Shown here piece by piece: positions 27,975 to 34,937 of a stretch of DNA of 64,000 bases. How positions within the stretch are numbered: the stretch's first letter is position 1; each line of letters begins with the position of its first letter. A program made the position numbers and the translations under genes. Source of the stretch: Eubacteriales bacterium (GTDB lineage Bacteria; Bacillota; Clostridia; Oscillospirales; CAG-272); contig JAZKYL010000113.1 of NCBI GenBank assembly GCA_045612105.1, positions 226,099 to 290,098 of the forward strand, given 5' to 3'. The notes beneath the pieces were generated by a model that saw nothing but the letters and a program-made list of their open reading frames with translations, did not search any database and was not told where the DNA came from.

Positions 27975-28031
27975 CCCCATTATTGCAATTTAACAACTTT
28001 GGAGTGTTTTTTCGTATATTTGTGACAAAAC

Positions 28032-28260
28032 TTAGCCCAGGCTTACAATGCGCTTTACGTCAAGTGCCAGGGCCAAGGACGTTCGCCTTGCGGTTGCAAA
28101 AACGAGCGGCGATTACAGCCCTCAAGGGCAAGCGAGGCTGTTTTCGGCAATGTTTGACATGGGCGAGAACGGCACGCGGGGGCTTATGAAGCTGATTGGC
28201 GAGGCACGAGGTGTTGATCTCGGAAATTTAGCCCAGGCTTACAATGCTCTTTACCAAGTG
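28032..28260 (+). repeat. Imperfect direct repeat at left edge of phage-like fragment (28032-28066 / 28228-28260)
   Basis: ttagcccaggcttacaatgc (20 bp exact) + g/t + ctttac + (gt) + caagtg, copies 196 bp apart. Confidence 0.85.
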
Positions 28261-31200
28261 GGAGCGCGAGGAGAGCATATTTTGAAGGCGAAAAATCCTT
28301 ATATTTCGATGCTTACGCCCGAGCAGGTTGGTTTGGCGTATACTTACGGTCAGATGGACGGGCTACTGGAGAGGGGGAAAAATAAAAATTCGTCTGAGGT
28401 AGTAGAAGAAGCGAAGCCCGAATTTTTGGATAGCGAGAAGGTCGAGAAAGCGCAAGCGGAGGTTGACGCGGCAAAGAGAACTGACGGCAAAAAGAAAAAA
28501 GGCACCGTTATTTACGACGGTGACAGAAGCAAGCTTTCTGATATGCAGAAAAAATCTCTTGACGTATTGGATAAGGTTGCCGAGGCTCTTGGCGTTACGT
28601 TCCGCATTTACGAGTCTGAGAGGGTAAATGGAAAATTCGTTTACGAGAAGCCCGACGGTGTAAAGACGAGCGCTAACGGTTGGTATGATACCAAGACCGG
28701 TGAGATCTGGCTTGATATTAATGCCGGACTTAACGGAGAAGGTACGCTGATCTTTACCGCGGCGCATGAGCTGACGCACTTTATAAAGCAATGGTCGCCT
28801 GCAAAATTCAAGATCTTTGCAGACTTCCTGATTGAGCAGTACGGAGAGCGTGGAATTTCGATAGACGAGTTGGTTCAGAGACGGATCGACAAGAAAAAGA
28901 AAAACGGTGAAGATATAGACCCGGATGTAGCTTACGAGGAAGTAATCGCCGATTCTTGCGAAACCTTCCTTCGTGACAGCAATGCCGCTGAGAAGATAGC
29001 AGAGCTTCATCAGAAGGATGCAAGTCTTGCACAGAAGATAAAGCGATTCCTCAGTGATATGCTCAAGAGACTGCGCGAGCTGATGAACGGAATGGATCCC
29101 GATTCGCTTGAGGGAAAGATGGTTGCTGAGATGACGGGAAGCCTGGAACAGTTGCACAAGCTTTGGACCGACGCGCTCGCCGATGCTGGGGAGGCGTATT
29201 CGGGGGCGGAAGGTGTAGTAAACTCTGAAGGCGGTGTTAAGGAACAGGCGAGAAACGCTAAAAACACAAACGCACAATCAAATAGAACCTTTTCATACAA
29301 TGAGCTTGTGTCAAAGGGGGATCTTTATGGCGTAGTTGTTGATAAAAATCAGCAATTACAAATGAATGGTGGTGTAGTAGATGCGAACTGGCTTGTAAAT
29401 GAGGTGAAAAAGGGTTGCCAAATTAAAAATACCAAAGGAGGACCGGTATATTACGCAGAAGCACCTGATATTGGTAGAAATGTTGAAATTATCAGAGACG
29501 GAATAACTCACGGATTTAACAGACCAAATGACAAAAGAGCAGGTAAATCCACTCCTAATGCCATTATAAATGCTAAAGCATCATTAAATATCATTGAGTT
29601 ACTTCGTCATTCTATAGAAGTCAACAGATCTCAACGAGGTGCCAATAAAGATGTGCCTTATACTCATGTATTGATGGGAGTTATGGAAATCGAGAATGCT
29701 GCAGGGCAAGCAGAATATTATGCGGTTCGTAGCATGGTTCAAGAGAGAACAAATCTCAATCCTCTATTGGTTGAAGTTAACATATTGGGCAAGTTATCAT
29801 CCGTAAATGCAAAAAAAATAGGTTCGCCCGCTGCTCAGGCGGGTAAAAAAACCACAGCCCCTGCAGGTGGCATAACCTATTTTACCTATAGTATAGCAGA
29901 TTTTCTTCAAGATGTCAAGGGGGAATTTGACGATACTTTTTCAAATGATGTTTATGCACATTTTAATATGCAACGCCATGCTAATGATTTTTCGGCTAAT
30001 TTGATGTATTCCGACCGTGATCCTGATGCGCTCACAAACCGTGAGATCTTAGCTAATCTTCTTGAGAGCGAAGATATGTCACCTTCGGAGAAGGGATTCT
30101 TGACGAAGTACAAGAACAAGATCTCTCAGATCGAGGCTAATGAGGCGGAGATCGCCTCCATGGAGACCGAGCTGAAGGAGCTTCGGAAGGCAGGAAAGGG
30201 AGATTCTTCGAGGGCTATCACGCTTGAGGGGAAGATCGAGAACCGCCGCAAGGAGATCGCACGGGATGAGAATATGATCCTCAATCTTGAGTCTACCAAG
30301 CCTATTAAGGAGCTGTTGAAGCGTGAGAAGGATGCCGCTTACGCTGAGGGTATGCTTGCCGGGCAGATGGGGCAGGGAAGACGGGATGCCGCCAAGCTGC
30401 GCCGAGCCGAGGAGAAGCTTGCGGAACAGAAGCGCAAGGACGGTGAGACTCTTGCCGAGTACAGAAAGCGAGTTGTCGAGAGAGAGGCTGAGATCAAGCA
30501 GAAGAACCGTGAGAAGCTGGCAGAGCAGAGAGAGAAGGCACGAGAGAATCTTGATGCGCAGGCTAAGAGGTATCAGGCATCGAGAAAGGCTGCGACCGAG
30601 GGCAGACATAAGACTGCTATGCGCCACAAGATTGCAGACGTTGTCTCTGAGCTTGACAGACTTCTGCGCAAGGGAACTAAGGAGCGCAACGTTAAGATCG
30701 GGCTTCAGGATGCGGTTGCCTCTGCGCTTGAGCTTTTCGATATGAATTCGGAAAAGGTAGAAAGATACAACAAGGCTATTGCCGATCTGGATGCCCGTAT
30801 AGCTGCCGCCACCGATCCCGTAGAGATCGAGGCTCTTACTGCCCTTCGTGAGAAGAAGGTGAGAAACAGCGAGAGGCTTGCGGACAAGCTGCAGGTAATG
30901 AAGAAGGCTTACGAGGATATTCACAACGGTCGTGACGGTGAGAATTATCCTTCGTATTACAAGGCAGAGTGCGAGGCTATTGAGAACCGTATTGCCGAGG
31001 TCATGGAGAAGGTGGGAGACACGCCCATCGGGGATATGTCCCTCGAACAGCTTGAGGCGGTCTATAATATGTACCGCATGGTATTGACCACGGTGCAGAA
31101 TGCCAACAAGATATTCAAGGAGGGCAAGCTGGCTGATCTTACCGATGATGCTGCTGCTATGACCGCGGAGCTTCAGAGGATCAAGAAGCTTGCAGAGGAG

Positions 31201-32955
31201 AGGCTGAAGGCGGGGGATGACATTCGCAGCTTTGTATGGAACGAGCTGACACCTTATTACGCGTTCAACCGAATAGGCTGTGAGACGCTCATGAGCTACT
31301 ACCACGAGCTGATCCGCGGCCAGGACATTTATGCGCGAGATATTGAGGAAGCGCAGCAGTTTGCTGAGCAGACTCGAGAGAAGCACGGATACAACAAGTG
31401 GAAGCTTGATAAGGTACACAGCTTCAAGGACAAGGACGGAAGAGATTTCCGCTTGACGTTGCGGCACATGATGTCGATCTACGCTTACTCCAAGCGAGAG
31501 CAGGCATTTGACCACATGGAGAAGGGAGGCTTCTTCTTCAACAACAAGGAGACCTTCAGGAAGAAAGGTGGAGTGCTTAAGTTCATAGCCTCCAACGAGT
31601 CGGGATACAAGGTGGATGCTCGTATATTCGCTCAGATCAAGGGAGCATTGACCGCCGAGCAGATCGCTTACGTTGACGAGATGCAGGCTTACCTCACCCA
31701 GATGGGAGAGAAGGGCAACGAGGTCACGAGAGTGATGTGGGGAATTGATATCTTCAAGGAGGCTGTATATTTCCCGCTGAAATCGAAGGAGGATTTCATA
31801 TACCAGGCTAACACTCCTGCGGAGACGTCGTCTCTTAAAAACGACGGCATGACCAAGGAGACAAAGCCTCACGCCAGCAATCCCATCGTGCTTGAGTCCT
31901 TCGACGAGGTCTGGGCGAACCACGTGGAGAAGATGAGCAAGTATCACGGGTTTGTTATTCCGATCGATAACTTGAATAAGTTGGTCAACTATGGAACGTG
32001 GATGAGTGGGGAGAGTCAAACGGAACGGGTATTTTCTTCTAATAATGAAATAAGAACTGAGATTGGCGAAGAGGATAGGACTGCCGGCAAGATAGCTGCT
32101 GATTTTATCGATGACGTTTCAAAAATGCAAGATAAAGTCAAGCGCTCCAAACGAAAGAAAAAAATCGGACTTCCTTCCTCTGCACATATCGAGAAAATTG
32201 AAGCCCTAATAAAAACTATAAACGAAGATTTTTCTGCTGATGGATACGAAGTTTGGATTGACGGAACAGCAGTAGATCATCTTATGAGAAGGCATGGAGA
32301 AAATGGTGTTGCCGATCACTCTATGGCTTCAAGAGAAAGCAGAGAGCTTATACCGTGGGTGGTAAACAATCCGGACTCGGGCGAGTTAATTCGCAATACA
32401 GACGGAACATTAGATTTATCCAATAGGTATTTTAATGCAGATGGATCGAAAGCACCGCAAATACGAATGGAAAAGCAAATAGACGGTGATACGGTATACG
32501 TTTCCGAATGTGTGCCTGATAGTATTAATAAAAGAATTTATATTACCAGTGCATACATAAAAAAAGGTAGTACCGATCAACTGTTGAACATAGCTCCTAC
32601 AAGTGGAACTCCGCAACCTACGTCCGAAACGTCTTTTGATGGCAGTACTACCAATAGTAGTATATCACATCCTGGCGAAAATGTCAATAGGAATTTTTCG
32701 ACAAATTCAGAAATGGGCTCTCATTCGATCTCCACCATGCTCGAGGCGAGGTTTGGTCCGGGTGTCAACGAGTATCTCAACACCTTTATAAAAGACCTGA
32801 ACGGCGCAAAAGCGCAGAATGGCGGTGTTATGGGCGGAGTGTTCAACCTCCTCTCCAAGTTCAAAAAGACCTCTGTGGCGGCATCGCTTTCGGTCGTTGT
32901 TCAGCAGCCTACGGCGATCATCCGCGCGCTCAGCGAGATTGACGCGAGGTATTAA
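28048..32955 (+). CDS. Fragment of a phage/mobile-element large polyvalent protein (zincin-like HExxH domain, coiled coil, two nuclease-like variable domains); probably truncated at both ends
   Basis: NGWYD...IWLDINAG...AHELTH...EEVIAD metallopeptidase-like motif; module boundary motifs VKEQAR and MYSDRD; DHLMRRHG...VVNNPD...ITSAYIKK RNase-like domain; no RBS at ATG 28048; ends abruptly at ...SEIDARY. Confidence 0.75.
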   Translation: MRFTSSARAKDVRLAVAKTSGDYSPQGQARLFSAMFDMGENGTRGLMKLIGEARGVDLGNLAQAYNALYQVGARGEHILKAKNPYISMLTPEQVGLAYTYGQMDGLLERGKNKNSSEVVEEAKPEFLDSEKVEKAQAEVDAAKRTDGKKKKGTVIYDGDRSKLSDMQKKSLDVLDKVAEALGVTFRIYESERVNGKFVYEKPDGVKTSANGWYDTKTGEIWLDINAGLNGEGTLIFTAAHELTHFIKQWSPAKFKIFADFLIEQYGERGISIDELVQRRIDKKKKNGEDIDPDVAYEEVIADSCETFLRDSNAAEKIAELHQKDASLAQKIKRFLSDMLKRLRELMNGMDPDSLEGKMVAEMTGSLEQLHKLWTDALADAGEAYSGAEGVVNSEGGVKEQARNAKNTNAQSNRTFSYNELVSKGDLYGVVVDKNQQLQMNGGVVDANWLVNEVKKGCQIKNTKGGPVYYAEAPDIGRNVEIIRDGITHGFNRPNDKRAGKSTPNAIINAKASLNIIELLRHSIEVNRSQRGANKDVPYTHVLMGVMEIENAAGQAEYYAVRSMVQERTNLNPLLVEVNILGKLSSVNAKKIGSPAAQAGKKTTAPAGGITYFTYSIADFLQDVKGEFDDTFSNDVYAHFNMQRHANDFSANLMYSDRDPDALTNREILANLLESEDMSPSEKGFLTKYKNKISQIEANEAEIASMETELKELRKAGKGDSSRAITLEGKIENRRKEIARDENMILNLESTKPIKELLKREKDAAYAEGMLAGQMGQGRRDAAKLRRAEEKLAEQKRKDGETLAEYRKRVVEREAEIKQKNREKLAEQREKARENLDAQAKRYQASRKAATEGRHKTAMRHKIADVVSELDRLLRKGTKERNVKIGLQDAVASALELFDMNSEKVERYNKAIADLDARIAAATDPVEIEALTALREKKVRNSERLADKLQVMKKAYEDIHNGRDGENYPSYYKAECEAIENRIAEVMEKVGDTPIGDMSLEQLEAVYNMYRMVLTTVQNANKIFKEGKLADLTDDAAAMTAELQRIKKLAEERLKAGDDIRSFVWNELTPYYAFNRIGCETLMSYYHELIRGQDIYARDIEEAQQFAEQTREKHGYNKWKLDKVHSFKDKDGRDFRLTLRHMMSIYAYSKREQAFDHMEKGGFFFNNKETFRKKGGVLKFIASNESGYKVDARIFAQIKGALTAEQIAYVDEMQAYLTQMGEKGNEVTRVMWGIDIFKEAVYFPLKSKEDFIYQANTPAETSSLKNDGMTKETKPHASNPIVLESFDEVWANHVEKMSKYHGFVIPIDNLNKLVNYGTWMSGESQTERVFSSNNEIRTEIGEEDRTAGKIAADFIDDVSKMQDKVKRSKRKKKIGLPSSAHIEKIEALIKTINEDFSADGYEVWIDGTAVDHLMRRHGENGVADHSMASRESRELIPWVVNNPDSGELIRNTDGTLDLSNRYFNADGSKAPQIRMEKQIDGDTVYVSECVPDSINKRIYITSAYIKKGSTDQLLNIAPTSGTPQPTSETSFDGSTTNSSISHPGENVNRNFSTNSEMGSHSISTMLEARFGPGVNEYLNTFIKDLNGAKAQNGGVMGGVFNLLSKFKKTSVAASLSVVVQQPTAIIRALSEIDARY
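29811..29883 (-). ncRNA. Predicted ~73-nt antisense small RNA 1 embedded after first variable domain
   Basis: Starts at 7th nt after -10 box; 10-bp terminal stem AAAAUAGGUU/AACCUAUUUU, two internal hairpins, U8 end; prediction only. Confidence 0.6.
29890..29918 (-). promoter_or_regulatory. Intragenic antisense sigma-A promoter 1
   Basis: TTGACA-tcttgaagaaaatctgc(17)-TATACT with extended -10 TG. Confidence 0.75.
32559..32652 (-). ncRNA. Predicted ~94-nt antisense small RNA 2 embedded after RNase-like domain
   Basis: Starts at 7th nt after -10 box; 10-bp terminal stem GGUAGUACUG/CGGUACUACC, AUCAA/UUGAU, two internal arms, U7 end; prediction only. Confidence 0.65.
32659..32687 (-). promoter_or_regulatory. 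Intragenic antisense sigma-A promoter 2
   Basis: TTGACA-ttttcgccaggatgtga(17)-TATACT with extended -10 TG. Confidence 0.75.
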
Positions 32956-33644: not shown

Positions 33645-34937
33645 ATGACAAAAATCGACATATTTTCGGGATTTCTCGGTGCGGGAAAGACTACCCTTAT
33701 CAAAAAGCTTATAGAAGAAGCATATCACGGTGAAAAGCTGGTCCTTATCGAAAACGAATTCGGTGAGATTGGTATCGACGGCGGTTTCCTTGCCGAGGCA
33801 GGCATCAAGATCAACGAAATGAACTCGGGTTGTATCTGTTGCTCTCTTGTCGGTGACTTTGCTGTAGCGCTTAAGAAGGTTATCGATGAATACGCTCCCG
33901 ACCGCATCCTTATCGAGCCCTCAGGTGTTGGTAAACTCTCCGACGTTATCAAGGCGGTTGAGAACGCAGACACAGAGGGAGCTATCCTCAACGGCTTTAC
34001 CACCATCGTTGACGCAAACAAGTGCAAAATGCATATGAAGAACTTCGGTGAGTTCTTCAACGACCAGGTTGAAAATGCGGGATGTATCGTACTCAGCCAC
34101 ACGGGCAATATTTCCGAGCAGAAGATCGCGGATTGCGTAGTGCTTCTAAAGGAGCATAATGCTACCGCTGTAATCGTTTCCACACCTTGGGATCAGCTCA
34201 CGGGCGATCAGCTTCTTGAGGCTATGGAACGCAAGTCTACCCTTGAGGCAGAGATGAGCGAACTTGCCGAGGAGGCTCACGAGCATCATCACCACCATGG
34301 CGAGTGCTGCCACCACGATCACGATGAGGAACACGAGCATCATCACCACCACGGCGAGTGCTGCCACCTCGATCACGATGAGGAACACGAGCATCATCAC
34401 CACCACGGTGAGTGCTGTCACCACGATCACGATGAGGAACACGAGCATCATCACCACCACGGCGAGTGCTGCCACCACGATCACGATGAGGAGCATCACC
34501 ATCACCATCACCATCACGAATACGACGAGCACGGTAATTGCTCCTGCGGTCATCACCACGATGAGCATGAGCACCACCACGAATATGATGAGCACGGTAA
34601 TTGCTCCTGCGGTCACCATCATCACGATCATCACCACCATCACCATCATGCCGACGAGGTCTTCGTAAGCTACGGCGCTGAGACCACCAAGAAGTTCAAC
34701 GCTGACGCGCTTAAGGCGGCTCTTGAAAGCTTCACCGATGCTGAAAAGTACGGTATGATCCTTCGCGCGAAGGGTATCGTTGCCGCAGATGACGGCAGAT
34801 GGATCCACTTCGACTATATCCCCGGTGAGCCCGACGTACGTTTCGGCGGTGCAGGCGTTATCGGTCGACTCTGCGTTATCGGCTCTAAGCTTAACAAGGA
34901 TGCCGTATCCAAGGCTATCGGAGTAGAGCTGGCATAA
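33645..34937 (+). CDS. CobW/COG0523 G3E GTPase metallochaperone with long His/Cys-rich insert
   Basis: SGFLGAGKTT, ENEFGEIGID, GCICC, IEPSGVG, LRAKG C-domain; GAAAGG RBS before ATG 33645. Confidence 0.92.
   Translation: MTKIDIFSGFLGAGKTTLIKKLIEEAYHGEKLVLIENEFGEIGIDGGFLAEAGIKINEMNSGCICCSLVGDFAVALKKVIDEYAPDRILIEPSGVGKLSDVIKAVENADTEGAILNGFTTIVDANKCKMHMKNFGEFFNDQVENAGCIVLSHTGNISEQKIADCVVLLKEHNATAVIVSTPWDQLTGDQLLEAMERKSTLEAEMSELAEEAHEHHHHHGECCHHDHDEEHEHHHHHGECCHLDHDEEHEHHHHHGECCHHDHDEEHEHHHHHGECCHHDHDEEHHHHHHHHEYDEHGNCSCGHHHDEHEHHHEYDEHGNCSCGHHHHDHHHHHHHADEVFVSYGAETTKKFNADALKAALESFTDAEKYGMILRAKGIVAADDGRWIHFDYIPGEPDVRFGGAGVIGRLCVIGSKLNKDAVSKAIGVELA
34278..34649 (+). repeat. In-frame tandem repeats: 4 x 54 bp (HEHHHHHGECCHHDHDEE) then 2 x HHEYDEHGNCSCGHHH
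   Basis: Direct reading of DNA and protein. Confidence 0.95.

Follow-up and report, generated by a model that had tools for sequence, protein, structure and literature searches.

A putative structured antisense RNA gene behind a predicted PBECR3 RNase domain in a polyvalent-protein gene of gut Clostridia

Why should a large effector gene of the phage type carry, on its opposite strand, what looks like a complete gene for a small structured RNA? The question is raised by a 64,000-nucleotide (nt) stretch of the genome of a Eubacteriales bacterium (assembly GCA_045612105.1, contig JAZKYL010000113.1, positions 226,099 to 290,098; hereafter the window), in which an open reading frame (ORF) of 1635 amino acids (aa), of the polyvalent-protein type, includes a predicted RNase domain of the PBECR3 family and directly behind it a linker whose complementary strand appears to specify an RNA. 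The comparisons reported here make us highly confident that this is a self-contained gene for a structured small RNA of ∼90 nt, lying antisense within the coding sequence of a phage or mobile-element polyvalent protein and furnished with a strong sigma-A-type promoter and a U-run. As to its role, the reading that we favor, with a probability of about 40%, is that the RNA acts as a domain-specific inhibitor of the adjacent predicted RNase domain. Coordinates are collected in Table 1, and L and G numbers are our handles for the loci and genomes compared.

The minus strand from 32652 to 32559 reads exactly as the 94-nt multibranched RNA that had been proposed from the window sequence alone (hereafter the original prediction). 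The stability that this proposal implied is present on that strand, with a minimum free energy (MFE) of -30.0 kcal/mol against a shuffle mean of -20.2 +/- 3.0 (z -3.23, 1 of 200 shuffles as stable), and the plus strand folds more weakly (z -1.63, 9 of 200 shuffles as stable); within a 64-kb window a single-sequence score of this kind is weak evidence by itself. The helices drawn by eye survive in part at this level, in that the single-sequence MFE structure keeps the end helices P1 and P2 but pairs the interior otherwise, whereas the comparative alignment described below supports P1, P2, arm A (P3) and arm B with its extension (P4 and P5). None of the Rfam 15 covariance models matches the window at gathering score, and the sole match at E<=10 over 32300-32900 is an unrelated microRNA model at 32496-32568. 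The promoter, with 11 of 12 hexamer matches and a TG extension, ends 6 nt upstream of the first base originally proposed for the RNA (32652), or 7 nt from the covariance-model hit starting at 32651, and is read in the sense frame as ..S-I-S-H-P-G-E-N-V-N... Sites of the form TTGAC-N15-TGnTATACT with at most one mismatch occur four times in the window against 0.06 expected, and a second antisense site of this kind lies in the same ORF at 29918-29890. A strict intrinsic-terminator scan of the window did not list the U-run of the RNA, because P1 encloses a large multiloop, closing a 66-nt multibranch instead of a small loop.

The RNA belongs to a family. A DNA search across 61 related genomes gave matches in seven, and in L003 and L004 a homologous linker has P1 and P2 sequences that are wholly different yet pair, with an unchanged centre (..CGUUUCGGACGUAGG..). 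A 21-nt core pattern found 2 viral, 8 genome and 9 metagenome stretches, all of which except L080 share the order promoter, ∼7 nt, P1, P2, invariant P3 hairpin, AGG, P4, CGG, variable P5 hairpin, AUGUU, P4', P2' and P1', and most of which end in a U-run. L080, from a Zetaproteobacteria metagenome-assembled genome (MAG), is doubtful, consisting of a core match alone (20.8 bits, model positions 14-74) without promoter, P1 or P2, and was left out of alignments A7 and A8. A 15-mer pattern gave 65 stretches in viral contigs, only three of them related (L030, L035 and L041); the rest are chance matches and are excluded from all counts. A first covariance model (R1), seeded by hand from four sequences with the originally drawn helices, gave 29 matches in 30 sources, including copies missed by the core pattern, and a second model (R2) was built from 28 matches. 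In total the family counts 46 matches, of which 43 are distinct, drawn from MAGs of Clostridia, metagenomes and viral contigs, and the bacterium's own 2.96-Mb genome has a single copy. No match was obtained in the INPHARED phages or PLSDB plasmids by blastn of the region or by tblastn of two domain versions, and a search of viral contigs with the single window domain yielded no relative. Two unusual arrangements were seen among the copies. At L003:1393-1607 (= L079:6686-6900) two family RNA genes stand in tandem, both with promoters of their own, the U-run of the first leading directly into the promoter of the second, and the upstream PBECR3 domain is gone; in the metagenome contigs L083 and L088 two family members are separated by ∼2.9 kb, and one constant region (..VKKNRSTKSDKT..VQKAVDALYEAD..) recurs behind both, a layout resembling the main and orphan modules of polymorphic toxin loci.

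Compensatory change maintains the helices. In 27 distinct sequences, 92.9% of cells hold standard pairs, against 35.4-47.9% with the 3' partners slid by 1-3 columns, and 26 of the 30 pairs are changed on both sides, with 0 of 500 shuffles reaching any of these measures; an earlier sequence set gave 94.6% of cells paired and two-sided changes in 24 of 30 pairs. These figures lean towards the model because the alignments were fitted to it. Left to predict unaided from the 46-row alignment, RNAalifold arrives at the same five helices, with compensatory changes in 25 of 28 pairs, and the same compensatory swaps are visible in single sequences inspected by hand. P3 is nearly invariant, although 8 of 46 rows have C-G or G-C in place of its U-A pair, so that the hairpin would close to a 3-nt loop. 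Paired cells hold 132 G-U and 12 A-C combinations, the latter being what G-U would look like from the complementary strand. By this count the molecule that folds is predicted to be the antisense strand of the ORF, in agreement with the promoter and the U-run. Conservation and covariation in 43 distinct copies thus show that the predicted RNA fold goes beyond chance, and its architecture is very probably one in which the 5' and 3' ends pair (P1 and P2) around a three-way junction of the invariant P3 hairpin, P4 and the variable P5.

The flanking signals are conserved as well. A promoter with at least 9 of 12 matches, ending 4-15 nt before the model hit, accompanies 37 of the 43 distinct copies (shuffles of the same 50 nt: mean 1.6, maximum 7), 21 of these 37 with the TG extension, and the hexamers are conserved across relatives while the spacer varies; the six promoterless copies are L093, L035, L104, L105, L107 and L114. 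At least six T residues in the 10 nt after P1 are found in 34 of 43 copies and at least five in 39 (L081 and L095 have no U-run). An 18-mer just upstream of the -35 hexamer (TTTCTGAATTTGTCGAAA; 32696-32713, minus strand; ..STNSE.. in the sense frame) varies hardly at all among several copies that have diverged elsewhere (L002, L005, L006 and L008), and could be an UP element, an operator or homology for cassette exchange.

This ordered arrangement bears on whether the element is an RNA gene at all, as it might instead be a DNA-level signal, an imperfect palindrome at the border of a cassette that serves recombination or domain shuffling in the manner of attC, with no RNA function. The break in homology between the window and genome G035 lies at the 5' end of the RNA and its promoter, and we place the cassette border there because homology with G035 starts exactly at that point; this, together with the existence of orphan modules with repeated constant regions, is what such a signal would lead one to expect. 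Its conservation of promoter and T-run in the right order and spacing, its three-way junction with an invariant unpaired core and its excess of G-U over A-C pairs all speak against it, and no recombinase is present among the seven genes scanned on each side, those further out lying beyond the scan. We consider a purely DNA-level role very unlikely.

A different objection is that the protein, and not the nucleic acid, is conserved, the region being a mere low-complexity linker such as a protease site, with fold and promoter as by-products of Ser, Thr and Lys codon choice. The original prediction had drawn attention to the motifs DHLMRRHG, VVNNPD and RIYITSAYI followed by a KKGSTDQLLNIAPTSGTPQPTSETSFDGST linker over the RNA, and these do occur in this order within the 1635-aa ORF, the peptide opposite the RNA being ..IKKGSTDQLLNIAPTSGTPQPTSETSFDGSTT.., C-terminal to DHLMRRHG..VVNNPD..RIYITSAY. 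Peptide motifs such as SPQPTSET and NNSIPQ recur among the copies, and AGTACT, a pair of Ser-Thr codons, is self-complementary. The reading frames tell otherwise. In 31 of 43 copies both RNA and promoter are covered by a sense frame of 300 aa or more; eight are in shorter frames and four in none. Among those 31 the core is read in frame 0 (..PTSET..) in 22 and in frame 1 (..PYVRNA..) in five, including the 1874-aa ORF of L030, the core pattern having failed to locate the core in the other four; the -35 GTCAA is mostly read as Val-Asn/Lys, with another frame in three copies. The TSET-encoding ACGTCCGAAAC is invariant at the DNA level in homologues: in all ten loci where a single open frame includes both an in-frame T-S-E and the catalytic motif, T-S-E is encoded by ACG TCC GAA, while the invariant His, Gly and Ser of the domain use two to five synonymous codons in the same ten loci. 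Because of these differing reading frames and invariant codons, the motifs NNSIPQ..NVN, SPQPTSET and KKG are best seen as shadows of the -10 and -35 hexamers, the core and the U-run. The same nucleotides kept in different frames, and codons invariant where synonymous change is free, already contradict a protein-level account; the P1, P2 and P5 arms encode different residues across copies and are still complementary, and copies persist outside any ORF. The account is thus extremely improbable. The comparisons indicate that constraint on the RNA region acts at the nucleic-acid level, and the linker peptide, including its recurrent 'S-I....V-N' motif, is in all probability largely a by-product of that constraint.

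The neighbor that the RNA follows is the only Pfam family found in a scan of the 1635-aa ORF, PBECR3 (PF18812; E 3.1e-9, 37.2 bits in the full ORF, 39.1 bits isolated and 41.3 bits in a phylum-wide search, against a gathering cut-off of 30). Relatives in L030 and L041 score 55.3 and 37.5 bits. An alignment of nine domain sequences (A5), used for the AlphaFold2 model and the profile searches, has invariant H58, H63, G64, G67, S72, K123, K142 and A149 among domains only 26-42% identical, giving the motif H..xxHGxxG....S and a C-terminal [ST]-A-[YR] in which [ST] precedes A149 in all nine. The H/[ST]-A pattern agrees with that of PBECR and colicin-D-like RNases in the account of Iyer et al. 2017 (PMC5512222), as far as the passages available go. 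The AlphaFold2 model has a mean confidence (pLDDT) of 89, and Foldseek against the PDB returned 0 matches at E<0.001, its top rows being NTF2/KSI-like with TM 0.2-0.3; a sequence profile search of the PDB gave nothing below E 0.16. In the BFVD there are three structure matches (E 2e-11 to 8e-8, TMq 0.76-0.80), all pieces of gut-phage proteins of >1000 aa called 'Nuclease' or 'PolyVal ADP-ribosyltransferase'. The PBECR-type RNase originally proposed upstream of the RNA is therefore upheld by the Pfam profile, at 37-41 bits against 30, but not by the PDB comparison of the fold, and the assignment is one of sequence profiles.

Domain and RNA go together. The A5 profile matched 22 of 401 genomes of the order, and R2, with filters off, finds the RNA in 22/22 of the loci so picked (E 3e-19 to 3.3e-4), each hit lying on the opposite strand and abutting the domain match at its C-terminus. 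Eleven of the 22 loci were in the R2 training set and match by construction; for the others, the placement is evidence. R1, trained on none of the 22 save the window itself (L099), finds the RNA at E<=0.01 in 13 and weakly in three more. The sole further R2 hit below E 0.03 in the 68.5 kb is a second copy in L112.

Some copies stand apart from the domain. Four genomes have a copy of the RNA and no domain match at E<=0.01 (G081, 95% complete; G085, 99%; G014 and G030, 82% each), and promoter-like sites precede three of these four orphans. The one in G081 (L095:1501-1593) is intergenic, between a glycosidase-like gene and hisIE, with a 9/12 promoter and no U-run. Orphan copies of the L075 type overlap the 5' end of a downstream ORF, and in those elements another RNA lies behind PBECR3 ∼2.9 kb away.

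The original prediction had also spoken of cassettes within this ORF, an idea borne out by a second antisense RNA, of another family, behind another domain ('cassette 1'). That RNA is more stable than all shuffles (z -4.88, 0/200) and differs in family from the PBECR3-associated one. The domain before it matches no Pfam family and has ∼30%-identical relatives in six other genomes of the 401; in five of these six, an antisense TTGACA-16/17-TGnTATACT is followed at the same place by an end-paired RNA with covarying stems and a U-run. Similar RNAs, preceded by this promoter motif, follow other domains of related polyvalent genes in L002, L005 and L008, so that at least four other RNA families are found at other domain borders (cassette 1, L002/L005, and two in L008). 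The RNAs of L002 and L005 look homologous, with compensatory changes. In the 4139-aa ORF of L035 there is no excess of antisense promoters, and the pattern is therefore not universal. Putative cassettes of a domain and its own antisense RNA nevertheless recur in this lineage.

Table 1. Coordinates of the antisense RNA gene, its sense gene, and the other antisense units. Positions are those of the window unless a locus handle is given.
Feature	Position	Strand	Basis or remark
Structured RNA, ∼87 nt + U-run	32559..32652	-	folding, covariance models, RNAalifold
P1	32652-32643 / 32575-32566	-	
P2	32640-32636 / 32580-32576	-	
P3, loop UCG	32632-32628 / 32624-32620	-	
P4	32617-32614 / 32586-32583	-	
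P5	32610-32605 / 32597-32592	-	
Nearly invariant core ..CGUUUCGGACGUAGGnUG.. (P3 + junction)	32614..32634	-	sense strand reads P-T-S-E-T
Sigma-70-type promoter	32659..32687	-	-35 TTGACA 32687-32682; 17-nt spacer; TG 32667-32666; -10 TATACT 32664-32659
U7 run (terminator-like)	32559..32565	-	directly after 3' arm of P1; Lys codons in sense frame
PBECR3-like predicted RNase domain, aa 1386-1510	32203..32577	+	Pfam PF18812
Polyvalent-type ORF, 1635 aa (sense gene)	28048..32955	+	ORF list; encloses antisense RNA gene
'Cassette 1', second antisense unit	29918-29806	-	TTGACA-17-TGcTATACT, end-paired RNA ∼75 nt, U8 run
End-paired antisense RNA with U-run	L002:1390-1500	-	z -5.33
End-paired antisense RNA with U-run	L005:1556-1666	+	z -4.41
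End-paired antisense RNA with U-run	L008:1070-1180	-	z -3.08
End-paired antisense RNA with U-run	L008:1395-1502	-	z -5.33

What, then, would the RNA do? If it is an inhibitor of the domain, it would serve as an 'immunity' or type-III-like antitoxin RNA, possibly a pseudo-substrate, made constitutively from the DNA of the element and binding the conserved active-site face of the RNase domain. In the producing or lysogenic cell the effector would thereby stay inactive, and once it had been injected into a new host, RNA made afresh there would silence it once more; where a genome has an orphan copy but no domain, that copy could protect against incoming relatives. Several observations lead us to favor this. 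The unpaired core and the junction are invariant, although cis-antisense pairing with the RNA's own message needs no conservation, and an invariant core beside domains of only 26-42% identity points to a partner in trans. The sole constant neighbor is a predicted RNA-binding enzyme with equally invariant catalytic residues, and the promoter looks constitutive and independent of the host gene. Finally, like orphan immunity genes, orphan copies of the RNA, three of the four preceded by promoter-like sites, have outlasted the domain.

A number of points weigh against inhibition. The PF18812 search of the phylum found 21 places in 19 of the 401 genomes, and the RNA is behind four of the five domains in frames >1000 aa (twice in G812, once each in G735 and G770, not in G761) but behind none of 12 in frames of <=149 aa, the solo PBECR3 proteins; three below-cut-off places (L135, 535 aa; L136; L137) also gave no RNA hit. 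From the contrast of 4/5 with 0/12, the RNA family appears to go with a polyvalent-embedded PBECR3 subfamily, and the fold would need no such partner in general. Since the RNA starts 0-15 nt from the domain end, physical linkage alone could yield the co-occurrence, and orphan copies may be mere decay products. RNAs of different families behind unrelated domains fit generic regulation at least as well, and the BECR fold has no confirmation in the PDB. Mimicry of a substrate, as put forward in the original prediction, is speculative, and its tRNA version finds no support, the likeness of the RNA to the genome's 39 tRNAs going no further than 8-nt matches and arm A having a 3-nt loop, not a 7-nt anticodon-like one. 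A possible likeness to helix 45 at the 3' end of 16S rRNA was dropped, the loop being missing.

Generic regulation would mean that the RNA is a cis-antisense regulator of the polyvalent gene, type-I-like, pairing with its fully complementary site in the sense mRNA or acting through collision of its promoter with sense transcription. The long message would be silenced, cleaved or attenuated, for example to keep the effector off in a lysogen or to uncouple the parts before and after the linker, and the structure would serve stability, termination and fast loop-loop pairing. The antisense geometry with its own promoter and terminator-like U-run is what this calls for, the different RNA families at other domain borders of related genes suggest a domain-independent role, and the RNA of L075-type orphans extends over the beginning of the ORF that follows. 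The sequence UUCG around the P3 loop would also fit the YUNR loop motif of antisense RNAs. But complementarity to the message survives any mutation, and a ∼20-nt invariant core amid diverged P1, P2, P5 and protein is left unexplained, as are the conserved three-way junction and the orphans in domainless genomes. We regard cis-antisense regulation, the chief rival of inhibition, as possible, though rather unlikely. The core, for its part, has no trans target in the bacterium's own genome, a single 18-nt match on C154 not being an RNA copy.

The same co-occurrence with the domain and the same core conservation would be seen if the RNA were a partner and not an inhibitor, whether a substrate processed into an active small RNA, a scaffold, chaperone or cargo of the polyvalent protein, or a decoy for an RNA-binding factor of host defense. 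A compact end-paired fold would be typical of stable protein-bound RNAs. Nothing specific speaks for such a role, and both solo PBECR3 proteins without the RNA and orphans without the domain sit poorly with it, so we hold it to be distinctly improbable.

Comparison with known systems places the candidate inhibitor between categories. With the type III toxin-antitoxin systems (ToxIN, CptIN, TenpIN) it shares a structured RNA beside an endoribonuclease at the same locus and an association with mobile elements, neutralization by direct binding being only proposed here. In type III systems, however, a tandem-repeat RNA lies upstream on the same strand and in the same operon and is processed by the toxin, whereas the present RNA occurs once, downstream of the domain and antisense to it, has a promoter to itself and is embedded in-frame inside a multi-domain ORF. 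In type I toxin-antitoxin systems and cis-antisense RNAs (Sok, RNAI, CopA, oop), too, the message of a harmful gene is overlapped by a short structured antisense transcript (here a predicted one, with a terminator-like U-run), which is driven by a strong constitutive promoter and ends at a terminator of the intrinsic type. In those systems the toxin is a small membrane peptide, the overlap lies in a 5' or 3' untranslated region, and the sequences are conserved in close relatives only; here the sense strand carries a multi-domain ORF of 1635 aa, the antisense geometry alone is common, and an invariant core and three-way junction are kept across very divergent RNA hosts. Polymorphic-toxin and MuF toxin-immunity cassettes offer a third parallel, with a variable toxin domain followed by a protective element, a conserved exchange junction, and orphan modules or 'immunity' copies. 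In those cassettes immunity is a protein from a separate downstream gene, whereas here that position is taken by an RNA gene antisense to the ORF itself, and the toxin domain is internal, not C-terminal. By analogy, the RNA would work most like a cis-encoded antitoxin RNA, yet its layout departs from the one that defines type I and from the one that defines type III.

The host gene is of the polyvalent-protein type described by Iyer et al. 2017 (PMC5512222), the parts consulted of which treat these proteins as large multi-domain effectors of phages and conjugative elements with PBECR RNase domains and extensive domain shuffling. The passages retrieved from that paper contain no 'antisense', 'linker' or 'immunity protein', and do not describe an RNA layer; a 2026 BECR preprint, in the portion available, deals with protein immunity only. 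The core sequence is in no searchable paper, and listings of the literature on RNA antitoxins with MuF, polymorphic toxins and conjugative elements showed nothing alike.

In the window, the 1635-aa gene is preceded by dxr, rseP, ispG, polC and genes for a rhamnosidase, a GDSL lipase and a BspA-LRR protein, and followed by genes for a dUTPase and CobW-type GTPases. It appears truncated at both ends, and its homologue in L002 extends ∼700 aa beyond its stop. It stands alone among housekeeping genes and stops where L002 continues, and is probably what is left of a phage or mobile element. Relatives are present on IMG/VR viral contigs; in one of these (L030) the 1859-aa ORF is next to a siphovirus DUF859 protein and an M23/LysM protein. 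For all its doubly truncated look, the gene is still open over 4.9 kb. A 31-nt direct repeat (94%; 28028-28058 and 28224-28254) spans its start codon, and in a CobW-type GTPase gene a 54-nt tandem repeat array (34214-34663) encodes a His/Cys/Asp/Glu-rich stretch, likewise in the L005 and L008 homologues.

Whatever the function of the RNA, the family shows that antisense promoters and RNA structure can show through in a protein as conserved 'linker peptide motifs', structured-RNA searches confined to intergenic DNA miss such genes, and the cassette borders in these mosaic genes coincide with RNA promoters. If the RNA does inhibit the RNase domain, it would represent a new form of toxin control, in which an RNA 'immunity' element is dual-coded inside the toxin's own polyprotein gene, and it would answer how producers tolerate polyvalent nucleases and how effector activity is timed; a conserved RNA ligand would also be a handle for finding the substrates of PBECR RNases. 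More broadly, and tentatively, polyvalent genes of phages and mobile elements in gut Clostridia might be built of cassettes of a domain and its own antisense RNA, each RNA neutralizing its injected effector domain. Such dual-coded RNA immunity would time the effectors and protect lysogens or genomes with orphan RNAs, and the PBECR3 RNA would be its first member.

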